UHGV virus genome: UHGV-0380352 | Reading direction: 5' to 3' (one strand) | Length of the DNA stretch: 25,338 bases | Origin: a virus | Shown: positions 21,934 to 23,181 of the stretch, piece by piece | Numbering within the stretch: position 1 is the first letter of the stretch | Layout: every line of letters begins with the position of its first letter | Program-made: the position numbers and the translations under genes | The notes under the pieces: generated by a model | Seen by the model: only the letters and a program-made list of their open reading frames with translations | What the model was told of the DNA's origin: nothing | Databases searched by the model: none

Positions 21934-22401
21934 TCATCGAAGGCATTGCGTCCTGATGTATTCCTGAAGCGCTCTCAGTGCTGTTTGGTCGCGGATAATT
22001 CCGTCCCGGATACCGAGAACGTTTCGTCCAGCAACTGGAGAGAGTTCGACGGTGGCATCATTGCCCATGCCGGAGGCGCTGGAGGTTTCGGCTGAGGATG
22101 GCATAGGGCATTTTCCTTTGACGAACACCCGACCACCATTATCAAGCTTGCGCCGAAGAGCATCATTTTCAGCTTTCGCATCAGCTAACTCCTTCGTGTA
22201 TTTAGCATCGAGTACATCAGCAGCACGCTGGCGTTGCTGCATGTCAGTAATGGTGGCGGTCGCCTGCTTCAGCTCACTGACTTTTTTATCACGCTGTTCT
22301 TTATAGGCGATGGCGTTATCACGGTAATGATTAACAGCCCATGACAGGCAGACGATGATGCAGATAACCAGAGCGGAGATAATCGCGGTTACTCTGCTCA
22401 T
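21934..22401 (-). CDS. Rz: i-spanin Rz (lambda Rz-like)
   Basis: 155 aa; N-terminus [31 protein letters not shown] is close to lambda Rz as I recall it, with an N-terminal TM helix and coiled-coil periplasmic domain; start overlaps the R stop. Confidence 0.85.
21975..22181 (-). CDS. Rz1: o-spanin Rz1 (lipoprotein) embedded in the +1 frame of Rz
   Basis: 68-aa ORF wholly within Rz in another frame; starts [21 protein letters not shown] (lambda Rz1 starts MLKLKMM, lipobox VVGC) followed by the Pro-rich segment [11 protein letters not shown] typical of Rz1. Confidence 0.7.
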
Positions 22402-22874
22402 ACCTCAATCTCTCTGACCGTTCCGCCAGCTTCTTTGAATTTTGCAATCAGGCTGTCAGCCTTATGCTCGAACTGACCATAACCAGCGCCCGGCAGTGAA
22501 GCCCAGATATTGCTGCAACGGTCGATTGCCTGACGAATATCACCGCGATCAATCATCGGTAAAGCGCCACGCTCTTTAATCTGCTGCAATGCCACAGCGT
22601 CCTGACTTTTGGGAGAGAAGTCTTTCAGGCCAAGCTGCTTACGATAGGAATCCCACCAACGGGAAAGAAGCTGGTAGCGCCCGGCTGCTGTTGATTTGAG
22701 TTTTGGGTTTAGCGTGACCAGTTTGCGAGGGTGATCGGAGTAATCAGTGAATAGCTCTCCGCCTACAATGACGTCATAACCATGATTTCTGGTTTTCTGA
22801 CGTCCGTTATCAGTTCCCTCTGACCATGCCAGCATATCGAGGAACGCCTTACGTTGATTATTGATTCCCACCAT
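22398..22874 (-). CDS. R: Endolysin, lambda R-type lytic transglycosylase
   Basis: 158 aa, the same length as lambda R; sequence [39 protein letters not shown]... is near-identical to lambda R as I recall it. Confidence 0.9.
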
Positions 22875-23181
22875 CTTCTACTCCGGCTTTTTTAGCAGCG
22901 AAGCGTTTGATAAGCGAACCAATCGAGTCAGTACCGATGTAGCCGATGAACACGCTCGTTATATAAGCGAGATTGCTACTTAATCCGGCGAAGTCGAGAA
23001 GGTCACGAATGAACCAGGCGATAATGGCGCACATCGTTGCGTCGATTACTGTTTTTGTAAACGCACCGCCATTATATCTGCCGCGAAGGTACGCCATTGC
23101 AAACGCAAGGATTGCCCCGATGCCTTGTTCCTTTGCCGCGAGAATGGCGGCTAACAGGTCATTTTTTTCTGGCATCTTCAT
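22858..23181 (-). CDS. S: Holin/antiholin, lambda S-type (class I, dual start)
   Basis: 107 aa beginning [39 protein letters not shown], near-identical to lambda S107/S105 as I recall it; Met1 and Met3 dual-start motif; three TM segments; 3' end overlaps the R start. Confidence 0.9.

Follow-up and report, generated by a model that had tools for sequence, protein, structure and literature searches.

Where does the similarity to lambda end in the lysis genes of a prophage, and does it end at a gene boundary or inside a gene? We are interested in this question for the viral genome UHGV-0380352, a stretch of 25,338 nucleotides (the window), in which a first-pass annotation had recognized a lambda-type lysis cassette attached to Sf6-type packaging genes and a P22-type Q. 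Very probably, the region is the late segment (regulation, lysis, packaging) of a P22-like, Lederbergvirus-type prophage with its integration site at argW, in which lambda-type S and R genes stand next to an HK620-type Rz/Rz1 pair, through recombination at conserved islands within Rz, and it represents an established and widespread lineage. S, R, Rz and, inside Rz, Rz1 all lie on the minus strand, and positions 21934-23181, where the cassette had been placed at first, run exactly from the start of S to the stop of Rz. The features of the late region are as follows:

24152..24823, minus strand: NinI-like Ser/Thr phosphatase (96.8% amino acid identity to lambda NinI; Pfam Metallophos)
23643..24161, minus strand: late-gene antiterminator Q, phage 21/Sf6 gp59 type (alignment, Pfam, PDB)
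23636..23665, minus strand: PR'-like late promoter, TTGACA-18-CATAAT (11/12 consensus; overlaps the 3' end of Q)
23505..23579, minus strand: tRNA-Asn (GTT) (ARAGORN and Rfam; position as in Sf6)
23424..23499, minus strand: tRNA-Thr (TGT) (ARAGORN and Rfam)
22858..23181, minus strand: holin/antiholin S, lambda class I type (PF05106, E = 2.4e-30)
22398..22874, minus strand: endolysin R, predicted lambda-type transglycosylase (by similarity to lambda R)
21934..22401, minus strand: predicted i-spanin Rz, 155 amino acids, HK620/ST104/JLK-2012 type (PF03245, E = 7.6e-29)
21975..22181, minus strand: predicted o-spanin Rz1, 68 amino acids, in the +1 frame inside Rz (PF06085, E = 3.8e-21)
21794..21946, minus strand: homologue of Sf6 gp65, 50 amino acids, with an ORF that overlaps Rz at the stop codon (Sf6 and Kapi1 annotations)
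21244..21486, minus strand: DUF2560 protein (PF10834, E = 2.6e-42), homologue of HkbM (HK620), gp67 (Sf6) and orf80 (P22)
20786..21214, minus strand: small terminase subunit, Sf6 type (PF20901, E = 7.8e-45)
19374..20789, minus strand: large terminase subunit, Sf6 type (PF04466, Terminase_3)

The promoter-like element maps to the annotated P_R' of Sf6 (35980-36009) and probably works as a late promoter. The Rfam search returned three tRNA genes and nothing else, and a Pfam search gave no match for the gp65-like ORF. The true start of the small terminase gene is likely at 21208; similarity to P22 ends near this start, at 21203. Plus-strand ORFs within 21934-23181 (e.g., 22052..22306 and 22973..23197) are unsupported, lying antisense to the 95-100% conserved S, R and Rz.

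Homology to lambda begins at 23422, directly downstream of tRNA-Thr, and the nucleotide match runs from there to 22154 at 95.4%. Alignment confirms that S and R are near-identical to their lambda counterparts, with 105/107 (98.1%) and 154/158 (97.5%) identical residues. S is also 100% identical to HK620 S and 99.1% identical to Sf6 S, while R is 98.7% identical to HK620 R and 96.8% to Sf6 R, and is unrelated to P22 gp19. The N-terminus of S, MKMPEK, contains the dual-start motif Met1-Lys2-Met3. With this motif, its PF05106 match and its identity to lambda S, S belongs to the lambda class I holins, a class whose criteria include three transmembrane domains. R belongs to the lambda R endolysins and has Glu19, presumably its catalytic residue, in the translation; R and lambda R alike match no Pfam-A model at E < 0.01. 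S would thus act as a dual-start class I holin/antiholin and R as a lambda-type transglycosylase.

How does the similarity to lambda end? An identity comparison against lambda, Sf6 and P22 had been set beforehand as a check, and in it the divergence of Rz is abrupt, not uniform; uniform divergence is ruled out by both the sliding-window identities and a maximum chi-square analysis. The maximum chi-square breakpoint against lambda lies at 22157 (Rz codon 83, Rz1 codon 8), where the mismatch rises from 5.0% before to 52% after (0/2000 permutations). The recombination-type breakpoint that had been suspected inside Rz is therefore present. Further breakpoints are found at 22310 (against lambda) and 22285 (against Sf6), each with 0/2000 permutations, and there is another abrupt identity step at approximately 21964, the permutation support covering 22310, 22285 and 22157. 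The following segments can be distinguished:

22303..22401, minus strand: conserved island A, Rz codons 1-33 (transmembrane and juxtamembrane); 94-97% nucleotide identity to lambda, Sf6, HK620, ST104 and JLK-2012
22210..22302, minus strand: variable cassette V1, Rz codons 34-64 (part of coiled-coil 1), recognized from its segment identities; Kapi1 99%, JLK-2012 91%, HK620 84%, lambda 76%, ST104 62%, and Sf6/P22 55% with a 21-nucleotide deletion
22153..22209, minus strand: conserved island B, Rz codons 65-83, containing the Rz1 start and the first 8 Rz1 codons; HK620 and Kapi1 100%, JLK-2012 96%, lambda 93%, ST104 88%
21965..22152, minus strand: variable cassette V2, Rz codons 84-146 (linker 2, coiled-coil 2) and Rz1 codons 9-68; HK620 and Kapi1 97%, ST104 96%, JLK-2012 95%, lambda 51%, Sf6/P22 45%
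21834..21964, minus strand: last 10 Rz codons (146-155) and downstream region, Sf6/HK620 type, where Sf6 identity resumes; 97-100% to Sf6, HK620 and Kapi1

Island A keeps this identity also in phages with an unrelated endolysin upstream of it. Downstream of the Rz stop codon, lambda, ST104 and JLK-2012 are only about 30% identical to the window. The Sf6 record annotates a boundary sequence, bsq7, inside Rz (the boundary-sequence evidence consists of GenBank feature annotations); it maps to window positions 22285-22332, mostly in island A, and its 3' edge at 22285 coincides with the breakpoint against Sf6. At the protein level, identity to lambda Rz is 100% for residues 1-31, 61% for residues 32-64, 100% for residues 65-83 and 29% for residues 84-145. 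The C-terminal half is thus diverged as first described, but the lambda-like N-terminal part is about 83 residues long and not approximately 30.

We infer that homologous recombination at short Rz islands, common to otherwise different lysis modules, has produced this pattern. The islands (codons 1-33, 65-83 and 146-155) flank the exchangeable cassettes V1 and V2. V2 carries almost all of Rz1, and because the lipoprotein is encoded inside this cassette, it is always inherited in a single piece with the distal coiled coil of its partner Rz.

Rz is 61% identical to lambda Rz overall and 90% identical to HK620 Rz. A PF03245 match covers residues 29-153, and residues 1-31 are identical to those of lambda Rz, which identifies the product as a putative i-spanin; in lambda, the transmembrane domain comprises residues 1-24 (PMC5295617). 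The Rz1 ORF (22181..21975) lies wholly within Rz (22401..21934) in the +1 frame. Its product has the features of an o-spanin: a lipobox VVGC (Cys19) with Ser at position +2, Cys27, a proline-rich motif PKPPAPPAW, and a PF06085 match that starts at Cys19. As had been noticed, Rz1 is diverged and longer than its lambda counterpart (68 versus 60 amino acids), with 28/70 aligned positions identical, and it is 66/68 identical to an ORF left unannotated in HK620. Judged from their sequences, Rz and Rz1 are predicted to form an embedded two-component spanin of the lambda Rz/Rz1 family, which would link and then fuse the inner and outer membranes. Spanins of this family disrupt the outer membrane, and lysis requires them in the presence of divalent cations. 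Cys98 and Cys153 of Rz and Cys27 of Rz1 align with the lambda cysteines (Rz C99 and C152; Rz1 C29). Periplasmic spanin cysteines have a role in homotypic disulfides (PMC6139136, PMC5295617), and the spanin domains are treated in the same two papers. A PDB sequence search with Rz gave no match.

Were the interacting parts of the two spanins exchanged together, as the first-pass annotation proposed? The C-terminal half of Rz and Rz1 are indeed both of non-lambda type. However, the segment of lambda Rz genetically implicated in Rz1 contact comprises residues 143-151, including E150 (PMC5295617), and it corresponds to the last 10 Rz residues, which lie outside the swapped block. These 10 residues are identical to those of Sf6, although Sf6 Rz1 is of a different type. 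The C-terminal part of Rz and Rz1 were replaced together because the same DNA encodes both; this co-replacement is forced by the gene layout and is therefore no evidence of co-adaptation.

The Q gene is a different case. The first-pass annotation took it to be of the P22 gp23 type, which is contradicted by alignment, Pfam and PDB searches. Q (172 amino acids) is identical to Sf6 gp59 at 170/172 positions (98.8%). It belongs to the phage 21 Q (Q21) family, PF06530 (E = 1.1e-25), and not to PF03589, the family that P22 gp23 and lambda Q match at E = 1e-57. Residues 1-162 match the PDB Q chains 6JNX and 6P18, which we take to be phage 21 Q, at E = 3e-92. Compared with the P22 gp23/lambda Q type (PF03589, about 207 amino acids), Q has approximately 20% identity over about 45 residues and no PF03589 match, and P22 gene 23 does not match the window at the nucleotide level. 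Upstream, a 97.7% nucleotide match to lambda (24814..24159) stops at 24159, the joint between NinI and Q.

The terminase subunits are of Sf6 type, as proposed. The small subunit is identical to Sf6 gp1 and HK620 gp3 (140/140), and the large subunit is identical to Sf6 gp2 at 456/469 positions (97.2%); neither has alignable similarity to the P22 terminase (gp3, gp2). Do several module boundaries fall in this region? The breakpoint inside Rz is one, but the Q and terminase joints are Sf6's own. Between ninI and the large terminase gene, the window and Sf6 are colinear, apart from the Rz interior and three deletions in the window, and joints at Q and terminase peculiar to the window can be rejected, Sf6 being colinear across both.

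Which known phages share this arrangement? HK620 (NC_002730) has the same gene order and gene types throughout the lysis cassette, with 94% nucleotide identity over window positions 23304..21771, and the same terminase type. It differs in its lambda-type Q (207 amino acids), in the lack of tRNA genes upstream of S, in hkbK/hkbL (KilA-N) between Rz and the DUF2560 gene, in the lower identity of Rz codons 34-64, and in that Rz1 is unannotated in its record. Sf6 (NC_005344; genes 58-68 and 1-2) shares ninI, Q, PR', tRNA-Asn, tRNA-Thr, S, R, Rz codons 1-38, the last 10 Rz codons, gp65, DUF2560 and both terminase genes, and likewise integrates at argW. In contrast, its Rz from 22285 to 21965 and its whole Rz1 are of the P22/Sf6 type (45-55% nucleotide identity; Rz of 145 and Rz1 of 61 amino acids), and the window is without Sf6 genes 66 and 68. 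Lambda shares S, R, the two identical Rz stretches, the embedded +1 layout with the Rz1 start at Rz nucleotide 221, the spanin cysteines, the lipobox and the proline-rich motif. Besides the distal part of Rz and the shorter Rz1 (by 8 residues), lambda differs in Q, in qut and in the stretch from Q to S, where the window has a Q21-type Q and two tRNA genes, and downstream, where lambda has bor and the window has gp65 and DUF2560. ST104 (gene 15/orf44) and JLK-2012 share the type with a 155 amino acid Rz and a 68 amino acid Rz1; over Rz codons 1-146, JLK-2012 has 91-96% identity to the window. Their holins and endolysins, however, are unrelated (33-35% in the 3' end of R), as are their regions downstream of Rz, and ST104 has another V1 type.

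To see how these segments combine more generally, we surveyed 109 Rz genes; the IMG/VR sample consists of the first 120 matches listed and is thus a convenience sample, which includes related prophages. Types were clustered on ORF-only alignments and the flanks were aligned pairwise; unrelated flanks artificially split the HK620/ST104 V2 type. Among the matches listed, island A is of a single type in 107/109 genes, and there are three main V2 types (43, 30 and 29 genes); Rz1 has 68 amino acids in 28 of the 29 genes of the window's type. Endolysin type and V2 type show no association in these 109 listed genes (χ2 = 4.6, p-value = 0.098). The window's combination of types is the commonest among them (14/109).

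Could a lambda cassette have been the recipient, with just the C-terminal half of Rz and Rz1 replaced through one breakpoint near codon 83? The lambda identity that continues without a break from 23422 to 22154 and is then abruptly lost is consistent with such an event, as are the two stretches of Rz identical to lambda (residues 1-31 and 65-83). We nevertheless consider it unlikely. V1 is much closer to Kapi1 and JLK-2012 than to lambda, and lambda-type V1 is paired equally often with lambda V2 and with HK620-type V2 (27/109 each, among the matches listed). JLK-2012 Rz is at least as close to the window as lambda Rz in every segment (V1, 91% versus 76%; island B, 96% versus 93%; codons 1-33, a tie at 96%), yet its endolysin is unrelated. 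The joint with R is therefore equally possible at the R/Rz junction or within island A, and the chimera could also be lambda. Since JLK-2012 is at least as close as lambda, Rz/Rz1 is best regarded as belonging in its full length to the HK620/ST104/JLK-2012 type, next to S and R of lambda type. The present comparisons are compatible with more than one direction and order of exchange.

A history without recombination, in which the C-terminal half of Rz and Rz1 diverged rapidly in place from a lambda-like ancestor (e.g., by co-evolution of the interface), is very improbable. All types are homologous at the family level (PF03245, PF06085), and weak similarity to lambda persists in distal Rz (29% of amino acids), which such divergence would leave. 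Against it stand the rise in mismatch from 5% to 52% within a few bases, the 95-96% identity of V2 in the Salmonella phage ST104 and in JLK-2012 despite their unrelated holins and endolysins, and the independence of V2 type from endolysin type in the 109 listed genes. Doubly coding DNA would also be expected to be more constrained, not less. That the mosaic is an assembly chimera in the window is hardly credible, given that phages sequenced independently, 268 complete E. coli genomes and at least 11 IMG/VR viral contigs all have the identical arrangement.

Recombination at the Rz islands thus remains our preferred reading, and the arrangement it produced is already known: it marks an established lineage, with no new joint in the present genome. 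The S-R-Rz-Rz1 cassette is 94-97% identical in HK620, Kapi1, 611R6, 683R2, phiv205-1, JEP4 and APC_JM3.2. Of 5,426 complete E. coli genomes, 268 have it at approximately 98% identity with a coverage of 80% or more, whereas no complete E. coli genome covers at least 80% of the window's prophage part. Holin and lysin types are interchangeable among P22-like phages (PMC2629481), and in phage L gp15 is 64% identical to P22 but Rz1 is 93% identical (10.1101/2020.10.05.325894).

A more speculative idea, which we offer tentatively, is that the Rz islands are partly maintained as recombination linkers and that the 155/68 amino acid cassette, whose Rz1 tail is approximately 10 residues longer, is a functionally distinct spanin variant that can be fully exchanged with the lambda and P22 types. 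If so, the linkers would let phages reassort three parts independently of one another: the endolysin, coiled-coil 1, and coiled-coil 2 together with Rz1. This would extend the known concept of boundary sequences and not introduce a new kind of system. The locus matters little past annotation; it puts figures on a clean case of mosaicism within a gene of a lambdoid lysis cassette, and shows that an embedded gene pair moves as a single unit of recombination for a trivial reason of structure. In annotations, Q should be labeled Q21-type, the cassette should be filed under the HK620 type, and Rz1, which is often left unannotated (e.g., in the HK620 record), should be called.

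The four lysis genes lie on the minus strand of the window:

23181..22858, minus: S, holin/antiholin, 107 aa (PF05106, E = 2.4e-30)
22874..22398, minus: R, endolysin, 158 aa
22401..21934, minus: Rz, i-spanin, 155 aa (PF03245, E = 7.6e-29)
22181..21975, minus: Rz1, o-spanin, 68 aa, within Rz in the +1 frame (PF06085, E = 3.8e-21)

The translated S begins with MKMPEK, the dual-start motif of lambda, and the PF06085 match of Rz1 begins at the lipobox Cys19. Amino acid alignments (see table) bear out the first-pass annotation in its description of S and R as near-identical to lambda and of Rz1 as 68 aa long. 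For R (22398-22874) and lambda R no Pfam-A model matched at E < 0.01, unlike P22 gp19, a strong PF00959 match; RefSeq annotations assign the R gene to GH24 in some cases and GH104 in others. Neither the HK620 RefSeq record (NC_002730, 3884-4351) nor the Kapi1 record has an Rz1 feature, although in HK620 the +1 frame of Rz contains a lipoprotein ORF of 68 aa that is intact.

Table. Amino acid identity of the lysis proteins to reference phages (Rz1: identical/aligned positions).
Protein; lambda; P22; Sf6; HK620
S; 98.1%; 87.9%; 99.1%; 100%
R; 97.5%; unrelated; 96.8%; 98.7%
Rz; 61%; 56%; 61%; 90%
Rz1; 28/70; 20/72; 19/72; 66/68

Where does the similarity to lambda end? The BLASTN match to lambda spans 23422..22154 at 95.4% identity. 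In 40-nt windows of a five-way alignment, identity to lambda drops near 22155 from 92-95% to 32-68%, and identity to HK620 holds at 89-100% across the same stretch. The window follows lambda base by base up to Rz codon 83 (…NDALR), or Rz1 codon 8 (M-x-KLKMML), and is unalignable beyond. By maximum chi-square, there is a breakpoint against lambda at 22157 (mismatch 5.0% to 52%), with a secondary step at 22310 (2.8% to 18%), and a breakpoint against Sf6 at 22285 (3.3% to 46%; 0/2000 permutations in each case). Identity to Sf6 is back at 97-100% from ~21964, a stretch that takes in the final ten codons of Rz and the sequence beyond them. The proposal of a breakpoint within Rz is thus upheld, with several found and divergence that is not uniform along the gene. 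At the protein level, identity of Rz to lambda is 100% for residues 1-31, 61% for 32-64, 100% for 65-83, 29% for 84-145 and 60% for 146-155, the last of these segments being 100% identical to Sf6. The N-terminus is therefore lambda-like, as had been noted, over ~83 residues, the middle of which is moderately diverged, rather than over ~30. The Sf6 GenBank record already annotates a "bsq7; boundary sequence" within Rz (37312-37359), which corresponds to 22332..22285 in the window, so that its 3' edge coincides exactly with the breakpoint against Sf6. The HK620 record likens its own Rz to that of phage PS119, not to lambda.

We aligned the window with Kapi1, HK620, PDP110P1, ST104, JLK-2012, lambda, Sf6 and P22 and compared nucleotide identity by segment, distinguishing two conserved islands of Rz (A and B) and two variable cassettes (V1 and V2).

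Table. Nucleotide identity (%) to the window by segment.
Segment; Kapi1; HK620; JLK-2012; ST104; lambda; Sf6; P22
3' end of R; 95; 98; 35; 33; 98; 97; 44
Island A, codons 1-33; 97; 94; 96; 95; 96; 94; 78
V1, codons 34-64; 99; 84; 91; 62; 76; 55; 55
Island B, codons 65-83; 100; 100; 96; 88; 93; 67; 70
V2, codons 84-146 and nearly all Rz1; 97; 97; 95; 96; 51; 45; 46
Last 10 codons and stop; 100; 97; 84; 84; 45; 97; 71
100 nt past Rz; 98; 99; 28; 36; 27; 98; 32

In island A all reference phages but P22 (78%) are 94-97% identical to the window, and this conservation extends to ST104 and JLK-2012 although the endolysin gene directly upstream is unrelated. Sf6 and P22 have a 21-nt deletion in V1. 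The occurrence of near-identical V2 in phages with unrelated holins and endolysins shows that V2 spread by horizontal exchange rather than arising by divergence in place. The Rz of JLK-2012 ties with lambda in codons 1-33 and is nearer to the window than lambda in all later segments. Since it is at least as near as lambda across Rz, the window pair is best regarded as a full-length pair of the 155/68-aa type found in HK620 and ST104, and the exchange relative to lambda could run either way.

The first-pass annotation also suggested that the interacting parts of the spanin pair were replaced together. Rz1 spans Rz nucleotides 221-427, so any exchange of V2 replaces both products, a structural necessity that says nothing on co-adaptation. 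The claim fails for the extreme C-terminus of Rz. Lambda genetics has placed the contact with Rz1 at Rz residues 143-151, with a salt bridge between E150 and R59 (PMC5295617). The corresponding last ten residues of the window's Rz lie outside V2 and are identical to those of Sf6, a phage with a different type of Rz1. The swapped unit therefore excludes this end and consists of nearly all of Rz1 together with linker 2 and most of coiled-coil 2.

An IMG/VR scan with a 17-mer from island A gave at least 120 loci, a convenience sample, and we analysed the 100 Rz genes with complete flanks among the matches listed together with nine references. Among these 109 listed and reference genes, island A is of one type in 107, and V2 has three main types: Sf6/P22 (43 genes), lambda (30) and HK620/ST104 (29). 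With the HK620/ST104 type, Rz is always 155 aa and Rz1 is 68 aa in 28/29. Within the same listed and reference genes, endolysin type is not associated with V2 type (24, 8, 15 vs 14, 15, 13; chi-square 4.6, p = 0.098); a lambda/HK620-like V1 cluster occurs with lambda V2 in 27 genes and with HK620-type V2 in 27, and Sf6/P22-type V1 occurs almost only with Sf6/P22-type V2 (36/38). The C-terminal motif LQEYIR(T/S)QCL(R/K) is common to the Sf6/P22 and HK620 V2 types in this set, and the most frequent full combination is that of the window (14/109).

The complete 1.5-kb S-R-Rz-Rz1 segment is present at 96-97% identity in 611R6, 683R2, Kapi1, phiv205-1, JEP4 and APC_JM3.2, at 94% in HK620, and at ~98% with coverage of at least 80% in 268 of the 5,426 complete E. 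coli genomes. The C-terminal module of Rz is found at 90% or higher amino acid identity in ~63 phage records, including many P22-like phages of Salmonella. Holin and lysin types are interchangeable among P22-like phages (PMC2629481). Phage L and P22 are 64% identical in gp15 and 93% in Rz1 (bioRxiv 10.1101/2020.10.05.325894), a contrast that is an intragenic joint of the same kind as that in the window. The S-R-Rz-Rz1 arrangement is thus already known, an instance of the well-known lysis mosaicism of lambdoid and P22-like phages that has been sequenced many times.

Upstream of S are the following features:

24823..24152, minus: NinI phosphatase
24161..23643, minus: Q (PF06530, E = 1.1e-25)
23665..23636, minus: promoter-like TTGACA-18-CATAAT, mapping onto the annotated Sf6 P_R'
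23579..23505, minus: tRNA-Asn
23499..23424, minus: tRNA-Thr

Q had been taken for a gp23-type protein, wrongly: it agrees with Sf6 gp59 at 170/172 residues, and its ~20% identities to lambda, P22 (gp23) and HK620 come from global alignments covering only ~45 residues and therefore reflect no real similarity. Lambda Q and P22 gp23 belong to PF03589 (E ~1e-57), whereas the window Q and Sf6 gp59 belong to PF06530. Residues 1-162 match the Q chains of PDB 6JNX and 6P18-6P1C (E = 3e-92), which we take to be phage 21 Q structures; the Sf6 record, in agreement, annotates its Q as "similar to phage 21 Q". Similarity to lambda ends at the NinI-Q joint (~24160), where the lambda record marks a recombination site. 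From ~23600 similarity starts to phages with a lambda-type Q and both tRNA genes (phiv205-1, with the same layout in Kapi1), and lambda similarity resumes at 23422, directly after tRNA-Thr.

Downstream of Rz lie the following:

21946..21794, minus: 50-aa ORF with a hydrophobic N-terminus, overlapping the Rz stop codon
21486..21244, minus: DUF2560 gene
21214/21208..20786, minus: TerS (PF20901, Sf6_terminase, E = 7.8e-45)
20789..19374, minus: TerL (PF04466, E = 3.3e-41)

The 50-aa ORF, for which no Pfam family matched, is conserved with Sf6 gp65 and Kapi1_042 (~98-100% nucleotide identity in Sf6, HK620 and Kapi1). The terminase was rightly called Sf6-type: TerS is identical to those of Sf6 and HK620 (140/140 each), TerL is 97.2% identical to that of Sf6, and both are unrelated to P22; the fetched lambda locus is without either gene. 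Similarity to P22 stops at ~21203, after the first 5 nt of TerS and at the start of the Sf6-type packaging genes. Relative to Sf6 the window has deletions at 21731/21722, 21588 and 21241/21209, the latter two corresponding to genes 66 and 68 of Sf6; compared with HK620, it is without hkbK/L and hkbN. The module boundaries named here, upstream of S and downstream of Rz, are all common to, or simple deletions from, published phages. The Rz-to-TerS interval (21209-21790) is the most compact among the phages compared, with no Rha or KilA-N moron, unlike P22, HK620 and phiv205-1, and no homologue of Sf6 gene 66 or of hkbN/Sf6 gene 68.

At its left end the window consists of host DNA, followed by phage genes:

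848..93: mlaA, host
1142..2074: formate/nitrite-transporter-family gene, host
2150..2224: tRNA-Arg(CCU), host
2350..3540: tyrosine integrase
4000-5163, plus: Acyl_transf_3 gene
5187-7397, minus: tailspike, 736 aa, with a P22 head-binding domain (aa 1-113) and a GDSL/SGNH esterase (aa ~180-360)

This succession of host genes, tRNA and integrase identifies the window as an end portion of a P22-like prophage, integrated at argW as are Sf6 and HK620. None of the 5,426 complete E. coli genomes covers at least 80% of the prophage part (2225-25338). The highest coverage is 76%, at 96% identity, and among phage records phiv205-1 ranks first with 65%; the whole module combination is therefore absent from these collections, and such a lack of near-complete matches is normal for this phage group. 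The receptor-binding part of the tailspike has no relative above 35% amino acid identity in 50,697 phage records, its best relatives being N4-like and T7-like tail fibres. In E. coli 23CRST047 an 'SGNH/GDSL hydrolase family protein' is annotated under the prophage match. The Acyl_transf_3 gene adjoins the tailspike gene in convergent orientation and is low in GC (35-40%); its product could be an O-antigen acetylase and the neighbouring tailspike a deacetylating one.
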